This document shows positions 35,280 through 64,000 of a stretch of DNA of 64,000 nt, one piece after another (the stretch's first letter is position 1; the number at the start of each line of letters is the position of its first letter). Source of the DNA: an uncultured virus (IMG/VR IMGVR_UViG_3300034157_000062) (lineage: Duplodnaviria > Heunggongvirae > Uroviricota > Caudoviricetes); the IMG/VR virus record IMGVR_UViG_3300034157_000062. One strand, 5' to 3'. The notes beneath the pieces were generated by a model. That model made no database searches and was not told the DNA's origin. It saw only the letters and a program-made list of their open reading frames with translations. The translations under genes and the position numbers were made by a program.

Positions 35280-35738
35280 TCAATCAGTTTCCTCTTCAAT
35301 CACTTCAATGACTTTTTCCATAAAGAATGTTAAATCGCAGATTAATGCATTTTTGTAGTTGTCATCTTCCATATTGACAATCTCATGAATAGAATCAACA
35401 ACTGCAACAAATAACGGCTCGTTTTCTTCGTATTTTTTTATTACAAACGATGTCTGTGCATTAAAGATGTCAACAGCACTTTCGCCAAGGTAAGGTTTTA
35501 AATCTTTAAAGTAATTTGTTATCTGAGTGATAGTGGTCATTTCTTCAAAACTATCAAATTCACACAGCTCATAAAGGTTGTTCAAATAATGATCCAGTAT
35601 TTCGTCTACTTTTTCAATTGAAGTGTTGTTGATTAATTCAATCATGCCATGTCGTAATCGTTCAGCATCTTTTGAGCAGATATCACCTAGTTTATAGCTT
35701 TTAACTTTCTTAATTAGAAGATCTTTAATATTAGACAT
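35280..35738 (-). CDS. acidic hypothetical protein
   Basis: 152 aa, GAGGTG RBS. Confidence 0.7.
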   Translation of the reverse strand: MSNIKDLLIKKVKSYKLGDICSKDAERLRHGMIELINNTSIEKVDEILDHYLNNLYELCEFDSFEEMTTITQITNYFKDLKPYLGESAVDIFNAQTSFVIKKYEENEPLFVAVVDSIHEIVNMEDDNYKNALICDLTFFMEKVIEVIEEETD

Positions 35739-35842
35739 GACTGCACCTCATTATGAGACATTATTCTACAATAACAGAGTATAAAAGTCAATTTAATACA
35801 ATACAGAGCCTAAAATAAATATCATAATATTAAAAGAAAAGC

Positions 35843-35871
35843 TTGATTAAATGTATAAAATACCGTATACT
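35843..35871 (+). promoter_or_regulatory. sigma70 promoter of proS leader
   Basis: TTGATT-17 nt-TATACT. Confidence 0.65.
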
Positions 35872-35896
35872 AGGTCAATACATAGGAAATCATAAA

Positions 35897-35959
35897 ATGA
35901 AAACTAATATTGCATTATTCAAAACTATTCGACCTCTACCGCTCATGATAGGCGGCTAA
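35897..35959 (+). CDS. proS leader peptide MKTNIALFKTIRPLPLMIGG
   Basis: AGGA RBS; Pro codons CCT and CCG; followed by attenuator hairpins. Confidence 0.75.
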   Translation: MKTNIALFKTIRPLPLMIGG

Positions 35960-36009
35960 GACTCTATTTGCTTCTAAATTGACCTTAACGCCTATTATGG
36001 GCGTTTTTT
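35939..36009 (+). promoter_or_regulatory. transcription attenuator upstream of proS
   Basis: terminator AACGCCTA-TTA-TGGGCGTT-TTTT (35987-36009); its 5' arm CGCCTAT is complementary to leader ATAGGCG; CCGC/GCGG upstream hairpin. Confidence 0.75.
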
Positions 36010-36069
36010 ATTGCTCAAAATAAACGATTACAACACAATAAAATAAATCAATTTAAGAGGATACATATC

Positions 36070-37200
36070 ATGAAATTTTCAAACATATTTTTTAACAACA
36101 GTTCTTTCGCTAAAGACAACACATCATTGAACTTGGTAGACTTAACAAAGAAAGCGTGCTTCTTTAACCAAGATTCATCTGGGATTTATTCAACGTTGTC
36201 ATTAGGCTATATCTTAGAGAAGAAGATAGAACGCATCATCGAAGAAGAATTATCAGAGATAGGTTTTTCACAAATGCGTTTAAGTTTAATTCAAGACGCT
36301 GATTTGTGGAAAGAAACGGGCCGATATGATCAATACGGTGAAGAACTATTCAAATTAAAAAACAGGGCTGGAAAAGAACTTGTTTTGAGTGCTACTTGTG
36401 AAGAATCCATCACGAACATTGTAAAGTCTTATTACAATTTCACTAAAACTAATTTGAAGATGTTCCAAATAGGCAATAAGTATAGAGATGAGTTAAGAGC
36501 TAAGTCTGGGTTAGTACGTGGCCGTGAGTTCTTAATGTCAGATGCTTATCATTTCTCTAACAGTAAAGAGAATATTGTCACAACTTACAATGAAGTCAGA
36601 GAGGCTTACACCAGAATATTTAGCCGTTTAGGTTTAGAGTTTCACATTCAAGGATCAGATGTAGGAGAAATGGGTGGATTAGCTTCCGAAGAATTCCGTT
36701 GCATTAGCGAATTTGGTGAAGACATTGGTGAAGATGGCAGTAAGAACCTTGAAATAGGTCACATCTTTAACTTGGGCACTCACTACTCTGAGAAAATGGG
36801 TTTGTTGGATAATATTAAGCAACACGTTAATATGGCTTGCTTTGGTATTGGTGTATCCAGAACATTGATGGCTTTGTTAGAGAAACAGAGAGATGACAAA
36901 GGTTTCTTTGGTACTGCAGCATTCAATACCTTTGATTACATTATCACAGCCATTGATTATGAGAAGAATAAAGAAGTTGCTGACTCTATTTATCAATCAT
37001 TAAAGAAACAAGGCTATACTGTGTTATTAGATGATAGAAATGTATCGGCTGGTAATAAGTTCAATGACAGTGAATTGATTGGCGTTAGTAATAGAATTAT
37101 TGTCAGTAACAAAAGTATTATTGCCAACGAATACGAAGTTTTAAACAGAGAAACAAATGTTGCGAAAACAGTGAGCCTTGAAACGTTAAAAACATTGTAA
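36070..37200 (+). CDS. proS: prolyl-tRNA synthetase, short form without INS editing domain
   Basis: LWKETGRY, ATCEE, KYRDELR...GREFLMSDAY, LEIGHIF, FGIGVSR, LLDDR anticodon-binding domain. Confidence 0.92.
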   Translation: MKFSNIFFNNSSFAKDNTSLNLVDLTKKACFFNQDSSGIYSTLSLGYILEKKIERIIEEELSEIGFSQMRLSLIQDADLWKETGRYDQYGEELFKLKNRAGKELVLSATCEESITNIVKSYYNFTKTNLKMFQIGNKYRDELRAKSGLVRGREFLMSDAYHFSNSKENIVTTYNEVREAYTRIFSRLGLEFHIQGSDVGEMGGLASEEFRCISEFGEDIGEDGSKNLEIGHIFNLGTHYSEKMGLLDNIKQHVNMACFGIGVSRTLMALLEKQRDDKGFFGTAAFNTFDYIITAIDYEKNKEVADSIYQSLKKQGYTVLLDDRNVSAGNKFNDSELIGVSNRIIVSNKSIIANEYEVLNRETNVAKTVSLETLKTL

Positions 37201-37261
37201 TAGTGACGGATAGATAAACAAAAACCAGCTTAGGCTGGTTTTGTTATGTCAAATAATACTT

Positions 37262-37981
37262 TTACAACCTATGTAAGAAGGTAAGTTTTTCTGATGATAG
37301 TTGTTGTTTTGATTCTTTTTGGTATGCCAATGCATAGGTTTTGAAAGTATCATATTCTTCCAGTGTGACATAATTATCTTTTCTGATTATTTTAAACTGG
37401 TTAACCAGTTCTGGTATTCCGATTTCATTAACAAGAGCCATTTTATCTATCATTGTATTTGCGGAGAGTCCTTCTACTTTTTTATTTACAATGTCTCTGC
37501 TACCTTTTGGATAATATGCATTCAGTGTAGCGTAATCTTTATTATCAATTGCGGATCTTAAAGCCTTCCCTTCTGTTGAGTTTTGAAAGTATATATTAGC
37601 TTCATTTAGCTTTTCATATTTTTCATTAAATTCATTTTTAACATAGTTTTCGGATGAAGTTGAGTGTAGCATTGCGATTACTAAGAATGTTGGCACGGAG
37701 CAAAAAAATATACCTAATATTTTTTTAGTGTTTGTATTAAAAAAATCATGGATAAACACTGGAATCATATAGAAAATCATTAATAACATTGATAATCCGA
37801 ATACAATAACAGTATGGTCATTATACATCGCTATTTGTGATGACATTGCTGTATCTTGTACATATATCATCAGATGATGCGGTAAAAAATAAAATAATGC
37901 ATATCCAAAAATTATTAAAATAGCTATTCCACCTAGGACACCATTATTAAAAATGGCAATATCAACCAATAAATCAAACAT
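37262..37981 (-). CDS. membrane protein (three N-terminal TM segments)
   Basis: hydrophobic N-terminal 105 aa; AGGAG RBS. Confidence 0.7.
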   Translation of the reverse strand: MFDLLVDIAIFNNGVLGGIAILIIFGYALFYFLPHHLMIYVQDTAMSSQIAMYNDHTVIVFGLSMLLMIFYMIPVFIHDFFNTNTKKILGIFFCSVPTFLVIAMLHSTSSENYVKNEFNEKYEKLNEANIYFQNSTEGKALRSAIDNKDYATLNAYYPKGSRDIVNKKVEGLSANTMIDKMALVNEIGIPELVNQFKIIRKDNYVTLEEYDTFKTYALAYQKESKQQLSSEKLTFLHRL

Positions 37982-38046: not shown

Positions 38047-38994
38047 TTATATTTTAAGCATTTTAATAACTGTAAGGTAATCCTTTAATGCTTCTGCTGA
38101 TTTAAATTCATCTGTTGTTCCATTGTTTTCTAATCCCACACAACTTTCAATGAAATATGCAAATATTGGGTTATAAAAAACTTCATAGTTCTTTATTAAA
38201 TAATCAAGTACTATATTCTTTTCATTTATCGAAAAATTATAATTTTTTAAGATTGTGGGTTGAATTTCTTCATTATCTTTATGTTGAAGTTTTAATTTTA
38301 AATCAGATTCGGTACAAAGATATATATTATCAGAAACACTAATTAAATGAATGAATACCTTGTCGATAGTTGTTTTATAGAGTTGAATCTGATGTTTAAT
38401 GCTATCGTTTAATTTAATAACATCATCACCGACAAAGCTATCTAAATTAGCTATATCTATTATATAGTAAGGATTATCTTGTAAATATAAAACGTTACTC
38501 TTCATTGTGACATTATTAATAAAATTATTTACTTTTAATAACCTAATCGTAGCATCTTGCCCCATCGTGGCACTACGAAGGCAATAAGAACCACACAATG
38601 GAATATTAATATTATCAATAAAGTCGTCATGAAAAAATTCTGTTTTTAAAATATTTTTAATATGACGATTAAAATAAGTGTTTAAGAATTTTATTCCATC
38701 TATCTCAATTGTTTTATAATTATTCTCAGGTACACAAATAGGATTTAAAGCAATTAAATTACCTGCTGATCTTACTCTAATGTTGATTCCATTTATACCT
38801 TTTGATAGATGGATATCACTTATGATGGGATGTTTTAATAGTATATAGCTTAAAACATCTTTAAGCTCTTCTTTTGTTTTTGTATTGTAGTAAGTCTTAT
38901 TTTTACAAATAAATTCAATAGCCGACATATCTGTTCCTAATAATTTTAGGAAACTATTTGCAACGGTCATCTCATGTTTTTCAATTGTTAACAT
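38047..38994 (-). CDS. paralog 4 of 4, PilT/GspE N-domain-like segment; Met(-4) motif
   Basis: SDIHLSKG...IRVR..G; ends YLTVIKMLKI. Confidence 0.7.
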   Translation of the reverse strand: MLTIEKHEMTVANSFLKLLGTDMSAIEFICKNKTYYNTKTKEELKDVLSYILLKHPIISDIHLSKGINGINIRVRSAGNLIALNPICVPENNYKTIEIDGIKFLNTYFNRHIKNILKTEFFHDDFIDNINIPLCGSYCLRSATMGQDATIRLLKVNNFINNVTMKSNVLYLQDNPYYIIDIANLDSFVGDDVIKLNDSIKHQIQLYKTTIDKVFIHLISVSDNIYLCTESDLKLKLQHKDNEEIQPTILKNYNFSINEKNIVLDYLIKNYEVFYNPIFAYFIESCVGLENNGTTDEFKSAEALKDYLTVIKMLKI

Positions 38995-39022
38995 ATTTAT
39001 TATTTCATCCTTATTATTCGAT

Positions 39023-39982
39023 TTATACTTTTATCATGTCAAGTGTTGTTAAATAATTTTTAAAGGCTTCTGGTGTCTTGAATTCTCCAATTAACGGGTC
39101 AAATTTTACTTGTGTCACATCTTCGATAAAAGCAGTAAAAATAGGGTCATAGAAATCGCTGTAATGTTTCAAGACATACTTTAAAATAGTTTTATTCATT
39201 TCTACCCTACCAATGCTGTAAGTATTAGGAATGATTACATTTATAGTATTGTTTCCCATGTATTCTAAAACAATTTTAATTTTGTTATATTTATAGATAT
39301 TTAATTTACCTTTAAATTTATTAAACATTTTATCAAGTTTACTTTCATAAAGATCGATTTTAGTTTGTATTTCAGGTGTGAATGTAACACCACTATTATG
39401 AATAAAACCTCCATTTATTAACTCAGCTTCGATAGTATAAATCGGATTTTCTTTTATTTGCAGTATATTATAATTAATATCAGTAGAGGTGTTGTTTTTA
39501 TTTTTAAGTATTCTTGTAATCCCATCATGTCCACAAGATGAGCTTCTTAGTCTATACATGCCAAACATTGGTATATCTAGATCACTATAAAAATCATAAG
39601 TTTGTCCAGTTTCCATTGAACTTGGACCTCTAATTTGTTCCAAAATATCTTTGAAGACATCTATAGCAAATGACTGGTTGTTAATCTTAGCTATTGCATA
39701 GTTATCATTAGCTGCAATGGTTATGGGGATGTCATGCATGTTACCATTTTTTCGAACTCTTAACCTTATTATTTTTTGATAAGAATCAAAGTTGAAATGA
39801 AGATCTGTTATATCCTTATAATTAACTAAAATATAAGTTAAAAAATGGTTAATAGTTTCTTTTGTTTTTGCATTGTAAAAAAAGTTATCTTTTTCAATAT
39901 AATCAATCGAACTTAAATCAGTATTAAGTAGACTTAAAAACTCATTTATTTTATCAAGATCATTGTTTTCAATTTTTAGCAT
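39023..39982 (-). CDS. paralog 3 of 4; Met(-4) motif
   Basis: TDLHF...RLRVRKNG; ends YLTTLDMIKV. Confidence 0.7.
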   Translation of the reverse strand: MLKIENNDLDKINEFLSLLNTDLSSIDYIEKDNFFYNAKTKETINHFLTYILVNYKDITDLHFNFDSYQKIIRLRVRKNGNMHDIPITIAANDNYAIAKINNQSFAIDVFKDILEQIRGPSSMETGQTYDFYSDLDIPMFGMYRLRSSSCGHDGITRILKNKNNTSTDINYNILQIKENPIYTIEAELINGGFIHNSGVTFTPEIQTKIDLYESKLDKMFNKFKGKLNIYKYNKIKIVLEYMGNNTINVIIPNTYSIGRVEMNKTILKYVLKHYSDFYDPIFTAFIEDVTQVKFDPLIGEFKTPEAFKNYLTTLDMIKV

Positions 39983-39999
39983 GACATCTATACCTCTTA

Positions 40000-40962
40000 T
40001 TATACTTTAATCATTTCTAGTGTTGTTAAGTAATTTTTGAAACATTCAGGATCTTTAAAATCTTCCAGTAATGAATCAGATTTTATTTCAGTGATGGTTT
40101 CTATCAGAGTCTTAAATATAGGCTTATAAAAAGATTTGTAGTTTTCTTTTAAATAAGCTAATAAAATTGAGCGGCTTCCATTATCTGATTTCAAGTAATG
40201 TTCGTAGTTACCATAAACATCAACAGTTATCGATCCAAATTTATCATATTCTAAACCAATAGATAATTTATTAGTCATATAATAACTGGTTACTTCACAA
40301 TGAGCATGTAACTTGTTTGTTTCTTCAATATAAAAATAGATATCATCTTCAATTTTTTTAGGTAGTTTGAAATGTGAGTTTTCAATAATCAATCCATCTT
40401 TAATTTTTAAATCAATTTTATAGAGAAGATTTCCATCTAAATTTAACCAATTAATGTTTGTAGCATAGAAAGGAAGAATTGTTGGTATTTTTATTATTCT
40501 AAATGCCGTAGAACTCTCCATCATTGCACTTATTATTACATATAAACCAAAATCTGGAATATACACTATGTCAGACGTATTGTTATCATCTATTTTTTTT
40601 GATATTAATCTTTGAATGTGGTCTTTAAAAAAAACTGTTGAAAATGAGAGTTTATTAATTCTTGCTGTTTCGTAATTATCAAATTTGTTAATTTCTATAT
40701 CAGTGAGGTGCCATGCTCCCATTTCTCTATACATAACATTAATCTTATTGGTGTTGTTGGTTTTAATAAGCAGGTCGCTTGTGTTGTTATAATTTTTCAG
40801 CATATAACTTAAAAAATCATGATCGGCTGTTAATTCAGCAGTAGTATATAATTCGTTATTTTTAATCACGTAATCAATAGATGAAAAATCAGTAGATATG
40901 ATATTTAAAAATTTATTAATTCTGTCTAGCTGCGTATCATTAATTTTTATCATTTTAAGCAC
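40000..40962 (-). CDS. paralog 2 of 4; Met(-4) motif
   Basis: ends YLTTLEMIKV. Confidence 0.7.
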   Translation of the reverse strand: MLKMIKINDTQLDRINKFLNIISTDFSSIDYVIKNNELYTTAELTADHDFLSYMLKNYNNTSDLLIKTNNTNKINVMYREMGAWHLTDIEINKFDNYETARINKLSFSTVFFKDHIQRLISKKIDDNNTSDIVYIPDFGLYVIISAMMESSTAFRIIKIPTILPFYATNINWLNLDGNLLYKIDLKIKDGLIIENSHFKLPKKIEDDIYFYIEETNKLHAHCEVTSYYMTNKLSIGLEYDKFGSITVDVYGNYEHYLKSDNGSRSILLAYLKENYKSFYKPIFKTLIETITEIKSDSLLEDFKDPECFKNYLTTLEMIKV

Positions 40963-40982
40963 CTTTTTAATCTAAGTTTTTG

Positions 40983-41981
40983 TTATACTTTCATCATTTC
41001 TAGTGTTGTTAGGTAATTTTTTAAACAGTCGGGGTCTTTAAAATTTCCATGCAATGTATCTATTTTAGTTTGTGTGACAGTTTCTATCAGGTTTTTAAAA
41101 ATAGGGTTATAGAATATGTGACAATTTTTTTTGATGTACTCTAAAAAATATTTTTTACCATTACATATCATGAAAACTGTTTCGTAATCACCGTAGACAT
41201 TCAAATTTATGTTTTCAAATTTGTCGTATTCTAAACCAATAGATAATTGATCATTTTTATAATACGCATTTTTTATGTAATATTTTGTAGTGATAGATCC
41301 CTCTTTGCACAGGATTGAGAACAATTTATTAATTTCATTAATGTAACAATAGATATCATCTTCGACTTGTTTAGGTAACTTGAAATTATGGTTTTCAACA
41401 ATTAATCCATCGACTAACTTAACATCAGTTTTGTATATAGGATTTTCGTCTATATTTAACCAATGAACAGTGCTTTGATTCTGAATTTTATCAGGCGTTA
41501 ATTTCATTAATTTAAATACAGATTCAGTCCCCATAACACCACTTCTTATTCTGTATAAACCACACTCTGGAATAAAGGCTATTACCAATTCATCATCATT
41601 CTGATGGTGTTTAGTCGTTATTTTTGATACATAATCTCTAAAACAATCAGTTGAACATGTGATTTCTGCGTTTGTGGCTGTCGTATAATTATCGTCATGA
41701 CTAATTAAAAGGTCCAGTAAATTATTTTTTATTCCATGTTCACGGGCAAATAGATTAATTTTCCCTTCATTTTTTTTATGCATCAATATTATTTCATTAG
41801 TGTTAGGATAATTTTTCAAAACATAACTCATTAAGTCATAGTCAGGAGGAAGTCTTTTGTTTGGATAAAATACGTTATTTTTGACCACATAATCAATAGA
41901 TGACAAATTAGTCAATAATCTACCTAAAAACGTATTAATTCTGGTCATTTCGTTGTCTTCAATCTTGATCATTGAGTTCAC
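40983..41981 (-). CDS. paralog 1 of 4; Met(-4) motif
   Basis: ends YLTTLEMMKV. Confidence 0.7.
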   Translation of the reverse strand: MNSMIKIEDNEMTRINTFLGRLLTNLSSIDYVVKNNVFYPNKRLPPDYDLMSYVLKNYPNTNEIILMHKKNEGKINLFAREHGIKNNLLDLLISHDDNYTTATNAEITCSTDCFRDYVSKITTKHHQNDDELVIAFIPECGLYRIRSGVMGTESVFKLMKLTPDKIQNQSTVHWLNIDENPIYKTDVKLVDGLIVENHNFKLPKQVEDDIYCYINEINKLFSILCKEGSITTKYYIKNAYYKNDQLSIGLEYDKFENINLNVYGDYETVFMICNGKKYFLEYIKKNCHIFYNPIFKNLIETVTQTKIDTLHGNFKDPDCLKNYLTTLEMMKV

Positions 41982-46804: not shown

Positions 46805-46961
46805 TTACTTAGAACAGGAGTCGAACCTGTACGTTATAGAAGGCTATGCCTGTGTCTACCAATTCCACGACCTAATCATTTCTGCTTAGGGAAGGATTCG
46901 AACCTTCATCTATAACAAGAAGCTAGGCTTCTCGTGTCTACCACTTTCACCATCTAAGTAA
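46805..46961 (-). ncRNA. double tRNA-like RNA (permuted tRNA nested in the variable arm of a tRNA)
   Basis: two D arms and two T arms in order D-T-D-T with all connecting stems paired; see findings. Confidence 0.8.
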
Positions 46962-47272: not shown

Positions 47273-47364
47273 TCTTAATGAGTAAAGGGACTCGAACCCT
47301 TACGCCTTTTAGGGGCATGTCTACGCTTAGACATTATGGCTACCATTACATCATACTCATAAGA
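47273..47364 (-). ncRNA. tRNA-Leu-like element with abnormal anticodon loop and no CCA
   Basis: acceptor ATGAGTA/TACTCAT, D arm, ATGTCTA-AGCG-TAGACAT, variable arm, AAGGG-TTCGAGT-CCCTT. Confidence 0.7.
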
Positions 47365-59369: not shown

Positions 59370-59426
59370 GTTATCACCTTGTTATACTAATATTATACAA
59401 TAAAAATTATATTAATAAAGTGCCGG

Positions 59427-59708
59427 TCAGAAGTATTCTGCATTCATATTTGCATTTACTTTCTTAACAAATTCGTCCACATTTATAAAAATGTTTTTTA
59501 CGAGGTCTTTATTGTTTTTAACAAACTCAGCATTTTCTTCAATAACCAATTCTACAACAGTGTTGATGTAAAAATTTAAAAGTTCCTCTAATTTCAAGAG
59601 TTCTTCTAAGTCCGACTTCAATAATGCATCTCTGTCTAATGAATCAAACTTTTCTTTTATTGCAAGAAGCTTTATTGATAAGTCGTTTACTTTCTCTAAA
59701 AAAGTCAT
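59427..59708 (-). CDS. hypothetical protein
   Basis: 93 aa, AGGAG RBS. Confidence 0.65.
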   Translation of the reverse strand: MTFLEKVNDLSIKLLAIKEKFDSLDRDALLKSDLEELLKLEELLNFYINTVVELVIEENAEFVKNNKDLVKNIFINVDEFVKKVNANMNAEYF

Positions 59709-59943
59709 GTTTTGCGTCTCCTATTATTTTTTAATGGTGTCTCTCATAATTTAATAACATAATTTATAAAAAAAGAAAGCATGAATGGTATTTTAATCCT
59801 ATTAATTTTTGTTATCATCATTGACGCCAATAATATTATCCATTTGAGTATAGCATTATAATGCGAAATATCCTTCGTTTTTTGACTTTTATCTTTATTT
59901 TATAAAATTTTGGCATGATTTTTGATTTTTTAAATTATTTCTT

Positions 59944-59961
59944 TGTAAGCTTTGTCTTATG
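59944..59961 (+). promoter_or_regulatory. GacA/UvrY-box-like upstream activating sequence
   Basis: TGTAAG-N6-CTTATG versus consensus TGTAAG-N6-CTTACA. Confidence 0.5.
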
Positions 59962-60246
59962 CTGGTTGTGGCGATTTACTCATATGATGATAATCTGCTA
60001 TCTTGCAAAATACCCTAAATTGTCATTTCGGCATTGCAAAAAACTTGATTTATTTATCATTTGACTATAAATAAATAACATATACAAAAAACTCTATATA
60101 AAACAACTTTTTATTGAATATAGTATTTAAATATCATTTTATAAAAAACCTTAAAAATAGCGTTTTTTAAATGGCGTCAATAAAAAATCTTGCAAAATGC
60201 TACAAAATTTAGTTGACAGTAAAAAAAATCCTGTTAGTATGTAATT

Positions 60247-60533
60247 GTCAGCAAGGAAACAATAAGAATAACTGCATAAGAAATGATTTTGAGTGTGGGC
60301 TGGCAAGTGTAATGGACGACAATAAAAAAAGGAATAGTGATTCAAGGATGTAGCAATTATCAGGATGATAAGTTAAGGACTCACTCTATAAAGGACTGTT
60401 ACAAGGAAAAGGAAGACAAATTAGAATTAAAGATGGAATATGTTCTAGTTTATTTACAAGGATAGTAGTTTTGTTTTAATGGATGTATAAACCAAAGGAA
60501 TGATAAGAGAGTCGAAAGGCTCTCTTTTTTTTT
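60247..60533 (+). ncRNA. CsrB/RsmZ-type CsrA(RsmA)-sequestering sRNA
   Basis: 13 GGA motifs (12 in ANGGA context), hairpin TTATCA-GGA-TGATAA, TTGACA promoter at 60213, terminator 60505-60533. Confidence 0.8.
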
Positions 60534-60574
60534 CTTCATTTTTTGTGGTATACTGAAAAGAAAACGAGATTAGC

Positions 60575-61207
60575 ATGATTAACGAATTAAAAGAAAAATA
60601 TAACGCCCTCGCTGTATTCCCTTATGGATCTAACGTCTACAAAAATAAAACCCCAGAAGATTTAGACTTTATCATTGTCAGTGATAAGCCTTATTTTCAA
60701 GAACAGTTTGAAAAAAACGATATTAAATATGAAATCAGCAATTACAGTAAAGATGAGTTCTTGGCTCGTTTACAGGAACATGAAATTTCTGTTTTAGAAT
60801 GTTTGTATATTCCACATAAAGAAAAATACCTCGACCCATCACTTAGCCGTGAGATTGAAGGATTTACGTTAGATAAAGAAAAGTTAAGAGAAAGCTGTTC
60901 TCAGAAAAGTTCTAATAGCTATGTTAAAGCTAAAAAGAAACTGACGGTTGAAGAGGATTTTAATTTAAGTGTTTCTTATAAGTCATTGTGGCATTCACTT
61001 CGTATCTTAGATTTTGGTATGCAGATAGCTAAGACTAATAAAATTAATCCAGAAAGCTGCAATGCATTATATGATCAAGTCATTAAAGATTATCTGCTGA
61101 TGAAGAATGATTGGTCTAAACTTCACGAAAAGTATAAACCAATGCATAATGCAATATCCTCAGAATTTAAACAAATGTGCCCTAAAAAGATTCACAAATG
61201 TAAGTGA
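60575..61207 (+). CDS. Pol-beta-superfamily nucleotidyltransferase
   Basis: YGSNVY...EDLDFIIV motif; helical C-terminal domain KSLWHSLRILDFG. Confidence 0.75.
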   Translation: MINELKEKYNALAVFPYGSNVYKNKTPEDLDFIIVSDKPYFQEQFEKNDIKYEISNYSKDEFLARLQEHEISVLECLYIPHKEKYLDPSLSREIEGFTLDKEKLRESCSQKSSNSYVKAKKKLTVEEDFNLSVSYKSLWHSLRILDFGMQIAKTNKINPESCNALYDQVIKDYLLMKNDWSKLHEKYKPMHNAISSEFKQMCPKKIHKCK

Positions 61208-61969: not shown

Positions 61970-64000
61970 ATGAGAATTGTTTACTTCTTATCAGCCATGC
62001 CGGGAACAGGTAAGTCTACTTTTATTAGAGAACATGGTTTAGATGCTCACAGCTTATCACTTGACGCTATCAGACATATTTATGCTGGTGCCGCTACTGA
62101 TATGGATGGCCGTCTTGTGCTGTCTAACAATAGAGAAGATTTAGTCTTTGGTAAATTTATGGAAGCTCTTGAATTGAGACTTCAAATGGGTGGTGTTCTC
62201 TTTATTGATAACCTCAACCAAGATCAAAAAGCGATTGATTCCTATATGGAACTTTTGACTAAGTTTGATTATGATTACCGTGTGGTTCAATTCCCATTGC
62301 AGCCAGTAGAATTCTATTATGCTCGTAATGAACAACGTGAACCTTATAAAAGATTGCCAAAAGAAGCCATTGATAGAAACTATGTGCTATTCACGAATGC
62401 TTCATTTGATGATAGTTCTAAAATCATTAGTCCAGAAGAAGCTATTAAGTTTGTCAAAGCAACACCAGAAGATTTGATAGTTGATTTGAGTGCTTACAAG
62501 AAGATACATTATATTGGTGATCTTCAAGGATCTTTCTATCCATTAAAAAGATACTTTGAACTAGAAGGTGGTTTAAAAAAAGATGAATTCTACATTTTTG
62601 TAGGTGATTACCTTGATCGTGGCATTGAAAATGATAAGTGCCTTCACTTTGTAAGAAAATATATGGAATATCCGAATGTCTTATTTCTTGCGGGTAACCA
62701 TGAGAAGCATTTGTATAACTACAGTCATAACATCTATACACCACCCGATGAATTTATGAAGAATACTTTACCACAACTTGAAAAAGCTGGGTTTACAAAA
62801 GATGACATGAAAGAGTTGTATAGAAAAATGCACTTGTTTAGTTTTGTTCAATACAATGGCAAAAAGATTATGACTACACATGCTGGATTGACTGCTGTGC
62901 CTGAGTTTCCACGTCTTTTAAACTCTGATGAGTACATGCGTGGTTATGGTCCTTATAGCTATGATGTAGATGGTAAGTTTAATGAGCAGAACAAAGATAA
63001 TGAATGGCATCAAGTTCATGGTCATAGAAATCAACATAAATTAGACTTTAATAGTTATGCTAAAAGCTTTGCTTTGGAAGCTGATGTGGAATACGGTGGT
63101 AGCTTACCCGTATTGAGAGTAAGCCGTGAAGGTTTTAATGGTATCTACATTACTAACAAAGTTTTTAATAAAGAAGAAGTTCTTAAAATTGAAAAAGATT
63201 CTGGTATGTTTGGTGTTGCTGAAACCGAAAGCACAGTAGCTAATTTCTTGAACCGTAAAGTAGATGGTCATAAAACAGGTGTTGCATTGCTTCAGGATCT
63301 TAGAAGTAATCAGTTATTGGTAGAAACGGTTTCTATTTCAAATCCTCACTTGTCCACTTTTAATTTTAAAGATGATGTTGTGGGTCAGCCACTTGATGAA
63401 TCATCTGTGAAAATTCGTGGACTTGTTATTAACAATAAAACAGGAGATATTGTTGCTCGTGGTTTTGATAAGTTTTATGAGCTTGATGAAAAAGGTATTG
63501 CATCTAATACATTAGAAGCTCTTAAATCGAAAACAACGGGTTCATTAAATGTGTTTGAACAAGAAGATGGTCGTTTGGCGATGATTGGTTATGATGTTGA
63601 AAATACAGCGTTGGTATTTACCTCGAAGAATGGCATTGATACACCAGAAACAGAAGCCTTTAAAAAGATGGTATTAAGTAACCTAAAAACAAGTGAACTT
63701 GAGTTTATGAAAGTGTTTGCGAACAAACACAATGTTAACTACATTTTTGAAGTCATTGATCCAGTCAATGATCCAAAGATTATTAAAGCTGATGAACCTT
63801 CAATTGTTTTATTATCTGTTGTGAAGCGTGATGTTGTATTCTCACAATTGACATATGAAAACTTAGAAGCTTTTGCTGGTAATTTTGAAAAGCTTGATGC
63901 GAAAAAGAAATTTGTTAGTTTTAGCACGTTTGAAAGTTTTGAGAAATTTTGTAATGCATTAAGCAATGAGAGTGCATTCAAGACAAAAAGACACATGGAA
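61970..64000 (+). CDS. Pnkp-like polynucleotide kinase / metallophosphoesterase / RNA ligase fusion (runs off window; absent from ORF track)
   Basis: MRIVYFLSAMPGTGKST P-loop; GDLQG, GDYLDRG, GNHE, THAG, VHGH; RGL...IVARGFDKF ligase region; frame open to 64000. Confidence 0.9.
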   Translation, partial: MRIVYFLSAMPGTGKSTFIREHGLDAHSLSLDAIRHIYAGAATDMDGRLVLSNNREDLVFGKFMEALELRLQMGGVLFIDNLNQDQKAIDSYMELLTKFDYDYRVVQFPLQPVEFYYARNEQREPYKRLPKEAIDRNYVLFTNASFDDSSKIISPEEAIKFVKATPEDLIVDLSAYKKIHYIGDLQGSFYPLKRYFELEGGLKKDEFYIFVGDYLDRGIENDKCLHFVRKYMEYPNVLFLAGNHEKHLYNYSHNIYTPPDEFMKNTLPQLEKAGFTKDDMKELYRKMHLFSFVQYNGKKIMTTHAGLTAVPEFPRLLNSDEYMRGYGPYSYDVDGKFNEQNKDNEWHQVHGHRNQHKLDFNSYAKSFALEADVEYGGSLPVLRVSREGFNGIYITNKVFNKEEVLKIEKDSGMFGVAETESTVANFLNRKVDGHKTGVALLQDLRSNQLLVETVSISNPHLSTFNFKDDVVGQPLDESSVKIRGLVINNKTGDIVARGFDKFYELDEKGIASNTLEALKSKTTGSLNVFEQEDGRLAMIGYDVENTALVFTSKNGIDTPETEAFKKMVLSNLKTSELEFMKVFANKHNVNYIFEVIDPVNDPKIIKADEPSIVLLSVVKRDVVFSQLTYENLEAFAGNFEKLDAKKKFVSFSTFESFEKFCNALSNESAFKTKRHME

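Follow-up and report, generated by a model that had tools for sequence, protein, structure and literature searches.

Attenuators have been predicted upstream of trpS and leuS, which encode aminoacyl-tRNA synthetases, in Streptomyces, pheST is cited alongside them, and for Firmicutes the source states that there are none by classical attenuation (PMC1262725). Here we describe a candidate attenuator in front of proS, the gene for a prolyl-tRNA synthetase (ProRS), on a 64,000-nucleotide (nt) stretch of DNA from an uncultured virus assigned to Caudoviricetes (IMG/VR record IMGVR_UViG_3300034157_000062); this whole stretch is referred to as the window. Like pheM-pheST of Escherichia coli and the trpS and leuS genes of Streptomyces (PMC1262725), the locus combines a short frame with cognate codons, an antiterminator/terminator switch and a synthetase as target. 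It differs from them in that the amino acid is proline, the sensor codons number one or two, the gene lies on a large phage-like element and the enzyme lacks its own amino acid. Vecchione and Sello, in J Bacteriol in 2010, reportedly described an attenuator of the auxiliary indolmycin-resistant trpRS1 of Streptomyces coelicolor, a back-up synthetase said to be switched on, once the housekeeping enzyme fails, by ribosomes that stall at cognate codons. That case differs from ours in concerning tryptophan and a chromosomal gene, and we know of no report that trpRS1 is free of Trp.

Proline codons serve as sensors in Salmonella, where those of the short frames mgtP (mgtCBR) and mgtL (mgtA) report charged tRNAPro and alter leader structure and transcription into the coding region (PMC3641672). 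There, mgtP has three consecutive Pro codons among 17 and mgtL has four, and the targets are Mg2+ transport and virulence genes, not proS (PMC3641672). Between mgtP or mgtL and the proS leader there is no sequence relation. Attenuators of the trpL type consist of four segments pairing as 1:2, 2:3 and 3:4, with sensor codons 5–7 before the stop and ~70–80 nt to the U-run. The proS leader shares this segment plan and these spacings; it differs in having segment 2 within the frame, in a complementarity between segments 1 and 4 through which the ribosome-free RNA forms one long helix, and in a permissive window of only about three codons. In Gram-positive bacteria, proS is regulated by proline T-box leaders (RF00230) through a terminator switch for which scarce or uncharged tRNAPro is the signal, whereas the leader described here is too short for such an element and has neither a Stem I nor a T-box bulge.

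No published leader-peptide attenuator for proS, nor any on a phage-like element, was found in the literature searched, most subscription journals lying outside it, and the available part of PMC4833913 holds nothing further on proS. The mechanism proposed below is a textbook one; new are the proS target, the pairing of a sensor with an enzyme that lacks the sensed amino acid and the repetition of the leader module before tRNA genes. We are highly confident that the region ahead of proS is a genuine cis-regulatory leader which is under strong constraint and contains a terminator switch. That it acts as a classical ribosome-mediated attenuator sensing Pro-tRNAPro is, judged from sequence comparison and modelled folding, probable.

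The proS leader and its alternative helices

The leader region is located between a divergent gene (35280-35738, minus strand) and proS, and its features are collected in Table 1. An initial annotation of this DNA had placed here a TTGATT-17-TATACT promoter, a leader frame with the codons CCT and CCG, a CCGC/GCGG hairpin, a terminator at 35987-36009 and, downstream, proS; each of these elements is present at the positions named. A scan for promoter-like sites in 3 kb found 14, compared with 16.9 ± 4.4 in shuffled sequences, so that the promoter match alone is not beyond chance. No other promoter-like site on the plus strand was detected by scan up to position 37324, including the region between terminator and proS. 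The AGGAAA motif before the leader frame resembles the ribosome-binding sites of real genes in the window, e.g. at 1870, 54168 and 61970. The frame contains the Pro codons CCT (35933-35935, codon 13) and CCG (35939-35941, codon 15), which are the only Pro codons among the 396 sense codons of the leader-proS unit. By count alone, two Pro among 19 leader codons are not beyond chance (P = 0.08 at the Pro usage of 2.5% in the window). The sequence CCUCU (35933-35937, plus strand), which includes codon 13, is complementary to the core AGAGG (36056-36060) of the proS Shine-Dalgarno sequence and is paired with it in the full-length minimum-energy fold. This pairing comprises 5 base pairs (bp), its duplex energy does not surpass that of shuffled sequences, and a function for it can be suggested only weakly.

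The only close relative examined is G001, a 181,270-bp IMG/VR record whose proS locus is termed L001, and conservation was deduced from one pairwise 5-kb alignment with it (overall identity 73.7%). The initial annotation had suggested looking for the leader upstream of homologous proS genes, and in this one close relative it is indeed kept. Identity is 56.7% upstream of the promoter (35739-35842), 93.8% in the leader and 87.8% in proS; it climbs from about 50–58% to 95% at the −10/start region and remains high thereafter. No other 192-nt segment of the alignment reaches the conservation of the leader (4962 examined; starts at 35701-36099 set aside). Twelve of the 192 leader nucleotides have changed, against 50 of the 105 four-fold degenerate sites of proS (47.6%; P ~1e-36), which demonstrates strong constraint on the leader. 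Within proS, synonymous differences occur in 105 of the 376 codons and non-synonymous ones in 19.

The distribution of the differences is informative as well. The promoter hexamers are kept in L001 (TTGCTA-17-TATAAT), and the promoter spacer and the six nucleotides after the −10 hexamer vary. Likewise, the leader Shine-Dalgarno sequence and the ATG are kept, and three of the seven bases between them differ. As far as the alignment can tell, this is the pattern to be expected for a promoter plus a translated leader. Codons 1-17 of the leader frame are identical (0/51 changes, synonymous sites included). The constraint on the RNA exceeds what coding and three helices require. Pairing between 35897-35947 and 36010-36069 does not explain the near-identity of these two parts with G001, and pairing of the 5' part of the leader with the 60 nt after the terminator is no better than in shuffles.

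The RNA can adopt three alternative helices, all of which are kept in the window and in L001. The 1:2 hairpin pairs 35939-35943 with 35951-35955 (CCGC 35939-35942 with GCGG 35952-35955), the 2:3 antiterminator is based on ATAGGCG (35948-35954) opposite CGCCTAT (35989-35995), and 3:4 is the terminator hairpin. The energies in the window and in L001 are −6.5 and −6.6 kcal/mol for 1:2, −12.3 and −16.1 kcal/mol for 2:3, and −9.4 and −11.7 kcal/mol for 3:4. The ATAGGCG/CGCCTAT complementarity of the initial annotation thus exists, yet it had been drawn too short: a 15-nt leader segment (35940-35954) can pair across the two arms of the terminator (35989-36003), as is to be expected if the pairings 1:2, 2:3 and 3:4 use the same bases. 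The minimum-energy fold, which contains this long helix, has −28.6 kcal/mol (z = −4.9), and none of 200 shuffles folds as well. All intergenic terminators of the window come after a long open reading frame (ORF), except for that of the proS leader and one at 60505-60526. No Rfam family, the T-box (RF00230) included, matched at the gathering score, and for the T-box nothing was found at E values up to 10 in 35700-36200.

Seven differences between the window and L001 fall into 35930-36010. Four of them form two compensatory pairs, A35948 to T with T35995 to A and A35950 to G with T35993 to C, converting an A-U into a U-A pair and an A-U into a G-C pair, respectively. Since position 35995 belongs to the loop of the terminator, the change at 35948/35995 supports the 2:3 antiterminator specifically. 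In the apical stem one G.U pair is replaced by A-U in L001, and two further changes (one of them apical) are in loops. For the long helix and antiterminator together, 26 pairs yield 52 of 52 cells paired, with two changes on both sides and one on one side only; the terminator gives 16 of 16 cells and the 1:2 hairpin 10 of 12, with a register shift by one pair.

For the effect of a translating ribosome, the leader was folded with the ribosome footprint masked at each A-site codon, using 3' boundaries of +12, +14 and +16 for the window and L001 (six runs). The probability that segment 4 is paired was at least 0.8 with codons 9-11 and 16-21 in the A site and 0.02–0.36 in all six runs with codon 13 (Pro13); at codons 12 and 14 it ranged from 0.03 to 0.99 depending on the boundary, and at codon 15 it was at least 0.86 in five of six runs and 0.28 in L001 at +12. 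The 3' arm of the terminator is hence predicted to be free only with the A site at codons 12-14, centred on Pro13. According to this model, read-through would need a ribosome held at a three-codon window which contains a Pro codon. The chance of finding Pro in such a window is ~0.07 at 2.5% Pro usage, which makes the position of Pro13 weaker support than the conservation pattern and the compensatory changes, both of which go beyond chance.

Table 1. Positions of the features of the proS unit and of the Leu leader frame within the window
Feature	Position	Strand	Remarks
Sigma-70-type promoter TTGATT-17-TATACT	35843-35871 (TTGATT 35843-35848; TATACT 35866-35871)	+	9/12 matches; consensus match only
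Leader RNA (5' untranslated region of proS)	35878-36069	+	192 nt; putative start ~35878, from onset of conservation
Leader Shine-Dalgarno sequence AGGAAA	35884-35889	+	7 nt 5' of ATG; kept in L001
Leader frame MKTNIALFKTIRPLPLMIGG	35897-35959 (TAA 35957-35959)	+	20 codons; same length and stop in L001
Segment 1	35939-35947	+	5' arm of 1:2 hairpin; also complementary to segment 4
Segment 2	35948-35955	+	partner of segment 1 or, as antiterminator, of segment 3
Apical stem-loop between segments 2 and 3	35957-35987	+	
Intrinsic terminator	35987-36009	+	hairpin 35987-36005, T-run 36004-36009; 8 pairs, 4 G-C
Segment 3	35989-35995	+	within terminator hairpin
Segment 4	35997-36003	+	within terminator hairpin
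Conserved spacer with proS Shine-Dalgarno sequence AAGAGGA (36054-36060)	36010-36069	+	Shine-Dalgarno 9 nt 5' of ATG; 2/60 differences vs L001
proS, bacterial-type ProRS, 376 amino acids	36070-37200	+	PF00587 and PF03129 only; TIGR00409 338.2 bits vs cut-off 306.7
Bidirectional terminator closing the proS unit	37221-37242	.	terminator scan
Leu leader frame MFTTIRLSLLLLCSLLLSLG	47881-47819	-	20 codons, nine Leu; all six Leu codons used

A synthetase without proline and related leaders before tRNA genes

The TIGR00409 match, by which proS is identified, falls in two stretches with the insertion missing; the INS editing domain (PF04073) gave no match in the window ProRS, and the nearest solved structures are bacterial ProRS. 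The enzyme contains no Pro among its 376 residues, and no other of the 58 window ORFs tabulated lacks Pro altogether, Pro accounting for 2.5% of 16,955 codons. The ProRS of G001 is 95% identical to it. Among 115 short homologues listed (41–96% identity), 113 have no Pro, one has one and one has two; five matches that bear the INS domain have 17–20. In the best 150 representatives of clusters at 50% identity, 12 have no Pro and one has a single Pro; the other 10 of up to 410 amino acids have 10–18, and those above 500 amino acids 11–38. The distribution of Pro counts among these representatives is bimodal. The existence of short ProRS with 10–18 Pro shows that shortness is not the reason for the absence of Pro. 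Two Pro-free homologues are named by their sources as Paraburkholderia, and thus low G+C content is not the reason either.

Biosynthetic enzymes that are needed during shortage of an amino acid tend to avoid that amino acid, a cognate bias which includes the proline pathways (PMC4209129). The effect described there is statistical and concerns biosynthetic enzymes, whereas here a synthetase family lacks Pro completely. A published proline-free ProRS was not found in the literature searched, with the limit on journals given above.

Among more distant proS loci, two on IMG/VR contigs of ~0.5 Mb (L083:1266-2586 and L084:1258-2577) encode ProRS of 368 and 376 amino acids with no Pro and 37–39% identity to the window ProRS; both genes follow tRNA genes and a small ORF, the end of which seems to overlap the proS ATG (GGTTATGA). 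The ProRS of a further locus, L085, has three Pro. A scan for Pro-rich frames within 400 nt upstream of proS at 162 distant loci revealed nothing systematic.

A second leader of the same design is found elsewhere in the window (47940-47690, minus strand). It has a promoter, a Shine-Dalgarno sequence ACGAGGAC, a 20-codon frame with nine Leu codons (Table 1), hairpins and a terminator (47734-47718), after which a second promoter and a tRNA-Leu array follow (47540-46183, minus strand). In G001 this Leu leader is 93% conserved, and an upstream ATG is absent there. In the mask folding, the probability of its terminator drops to 0.06–0.2 at codons 8-12, the run of Leu codons. The proS and Leu leaders share the exact 15-mer TTCAMAACTATTCGA, encoding F-x-T-I-R, which occurs just twice in the window and twice in G001, and the CCG codon of the proS leader aligns to a CTG codon of the Leu leader. 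A third leader, MNIQLTIRARAIS (T-I-R-A-R-A), is located in G001 at ~155.7–155.9 kb (L182:15735-15925), again with a promoter, a ribosome site (TAGGAA) and a strong terminator, and precedes a tRNA array of Ala (six), Arg (three) and Met (two) genes. Here T-I-R is written with other codons (ACT ATA AGA). In all three leaders, the codons directly after T-I-R match the downstream gene.

These likenesses suggest a broader scheme, which seems to us a serious candidate but somewhat short of likely as a whole. The leaders may form a modular family of T-I-R plus sensor codons with terminator switches, in which each responds to a single aminoacyl-tRNA pool and switches on the corresponding spare component of the translation apparatus, i.e. 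Pro the Pro-free ProRS, Leu the tRNA-Leu array, and Ala/Arg the tRNA-Ala/Arg array. In this scheme the T-I-R peptide may render the ribosome more sensitive when its A site is empty, and the Pro-free ProRS would be a widespread starvation- or inhibitor-proof back-up class (at least 12 of the best 150 clusters at 50% identity).

The window tRNA array comprises ten genes of the tRNA-Leu type. One gene of the array (46882-46960, minus strand) has a CTA, i.e. amber-reading, anticodon, and G001 has a tRNA-Gln(TTG)-like gene at this place; TAG ends only three of 58 window ORFs. Another gene (47277-47360, minus strand) was called with a four-base anticodon.

Proposed mechanism and alternative explanations

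We propose the following course of events. Transcription from the promoter at 35843-35871 would start an RNA of ~190 nt ahead of proS, and a ribosome would translate the 20-codon frame while RNA polymerase transcribes the terminator ~70 nt downstream. With no ribosome on the leader, or with one that has not reached codon 12, 35940-35954 would pair with both terminator arms, or 1:2 and 3:4 would form first. In either case a G+C-rich helix would end at G36003 beside the U-run and transcription would stop. A ribosome at the stop codon would cover segments 1 and 2, the 3:4 terminator would form and transcription would likewise stop. If the ribosome is held with its A site roughly at codons 12-14, the most plausible place being Pro13 (CCU) when Pro-tRNAPro is short, it would cover segment 1 and leave segment 2 free. 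Segment 2 could then pair with segment 3, leaving segment 4 without a partner, and the polymerase would read into proS. Leader translation, stalling at Pro13 and the physiological signal are steps that we infer. The classical geometry put forward in the initial annotation, with stalling at Pro freeing the antiterminator and a ribosome at the stop codon permitting termination, fits the compensatory changes, the purifying selection from the presumed transcription start, the permissive window at codons 12-14, the Pro-free ProRS and the Leu paralogue.

A Pro-free enzyme could be translated in the very condition that induces proS and would solve the problem of making a synthetase when its own product is missing. 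If this holds, large mobile elements would monitor single charged-tRNA pools and repair them on demand, which bears on how such elements sustain translation when the host fails or defends itself. The leaders would then represent short, portable, codon-specific sensors.

Several observations weigh against a proline-sensing attenuator. The leader has few Pro codons, two, and the presence of each may have a different cause, CCG lying in stem 1 and CCU in the CCUCU complementary to the proS Shine-Dalgarno sequence. For a ribosome stalled with Pro15 in the A site, the mask model gives termination in most runs. The sensitivity of attenuators is described as rising with the number of regulatory codons, few codons giving a hyperbolic and not a hypersensitive response (PMC1183508). 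That the long helix of the ribosome-free RNA terminates transcription is a step we likewise infer, and this status counts as a weakness. The comparison is based on a single close relative, and with two sequences the shuffle control for covariation is weak, since 117 of 500 shuffles show at least as much covariation. The third leader showed no switching in the mask model (terminator probability of 1.00 everywhere), which speaks against a uniform mechanism, and no attenuator is evident before the Pro-free proS genes of L083 and L084. Finally, the absence of changes in codons 1-17 (0/51, synonymous sites included) and the two changes among 60 in 36010-36069 mean that the whole RNA is constrained at the nucleotide level; this goes beyond a simple peptide-coding leader and also fits a non-translated RNA.

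The last point leads to the view that the RNA functions untranslated and the frame is incidental. The RNA might be a small RNA of ~130 nt with a long terminator hairpin at its end, an element for RNase III-type processing or for stability, or a leader to which a protein or tRNA binds. This view would account for the conservation of every synonymous site in codons 1-17 and of the 60 nt after the terminator; moreover, the compensatory changes back the long helix as much as the switch, and the long helix is the minimum-energy fold. We nevertheless regard it as unlikely. The Shine-Dalgarno sequence and the ATG are kept around a variable spacer, as are frame length and stop; Pro13 sits at the permissive position of the mask folding, and T-I-R is retained as a peptide by different codons in the third leader. 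Nor is there a match to a known RNA family or a GG-type tRNAPro anticodon mimic in any loop of the fold, or a separate proS promoter by scan. The latter also stands against the idea that the frame represents a separate gene for a small protein, followed by a leaky terminator of its own, and that the complementarity is fortuitous. Most terminators in the window lie 10–40 nt after a stop codon and that of the leader 27 nt after the TAA, as such a gene would have it, but 15 bp of complementarity with two compensated changes, and a frame free of synonymous changes, make this explanation highly improbable.

A ribosome-mediated attenuator that is not specific for proline shares most of the proposed mechanism. 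Slow decoding of Arg12 (CGA), Leu14 (CTA) or Leu16 (CTC), or general translation speed, would be sensed, possibly along with proline. The permissive window comprises codons 12-14 and not Pro13 alone, and CGA and CTA, both in it, are uncommon codons in this DNA (4.2 and 7.7 per 1000). The initial annotation had cautioned that the leader may also sense Leu, and this caution stands: Leu14 is one of the permissive codons, and the proS and Leu leaders are homologous, CCG of the former standing opposite CTG of the latter. Multivalent leaders exist, as in ilvGMEDA and thr. On the other hand, the regulated gene encodes a ProRS that is itself Pro-free, which points to proline, and the codon after T-I-R agrees with the downstream gene in all three leaders. 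Sensing without proline specificity therefore appears to us improbable, to about the same degree as an untranslated RNA, and a sensor of Pro-tRNAPro remains the probable reading.

The element and its neighbouring genes

Shine-Dalgarno motifs precede most window ORFs, from which we conclude that the element is prokaryotic and that coupled translation is plausible. The synthetase, asparagine synthase, Fpg, UvdE and the tRNA arrays had raised the possibility of a eukaryotic giant virus, which was rejected on account of the same motifs. The G+C content of the window is 26–41%, and most of its ORFs have no Pfam or PHROG family. G001, classed as a provirus with a CheckV completeness of 58%, is syntenic with most of the window at 63–80% nucleotide identity. 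A PHROGs scan found no virion genes among 51 window ORFs and 40 large G001 ORFs; 'phage-like' is thus the safe wording, and the label 'phage' rests on the IMG/VR classification.

Further relatives were sought in several collections. Scans of IMG/VR revealed one close contig only. In a phage collection there was no DNA match and protein matches reached at most 42% identity; in plasmids, DNA matches were confined to tRNA-like fragments and protein matches to ~42% identity at most. Scans of metagenomes and genomes with generic ProRS motifs gave, among the matches listed, only relatives of up to 41% identity, and a close homologue was present in none of 401 genomes of one class.

Recognizable genes in the window include those for GAPDH, asparagine synthase, thioredoxin reductase, Fpg, UvdE and a kinase-phosphatase-RNA ligase. 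The best named homologues of the GAPDH are from Rhizobiales (57–60% identity), which is not decisive for the host, and a protein atlas offered no pointer to it. The asparagine synthase was checked for a corresponding absence of Asn and contains 44 Asn. Four tandem ORFs of similar size (315–332 amino acids) at 38047-41981 (minus strand) are without Pfam or PHROG family.

RNA-repair genes adjoin the tRNA arrays and proS. In the window this is the kinase-phosphatase-RNA ligase fusion (AAA_33, Metallophos, RNA_lig_T4_1) at 61970-64000 (plus strand), and in G001 an RtcB-type ligase (L175:8791-10227). Their position beside tRNA arrays and proS suggests heavy investment in keeping translation going. 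Finally, 1.2 kb of the window (59370-60575) contain no ORF of at least 100 amino acids and end in the strong terminator at 60505-60526 (plus strand), which is directly followed by the TGgTATACT promoter of the gene at 60575. This stretch may specify a non-coding RNA.

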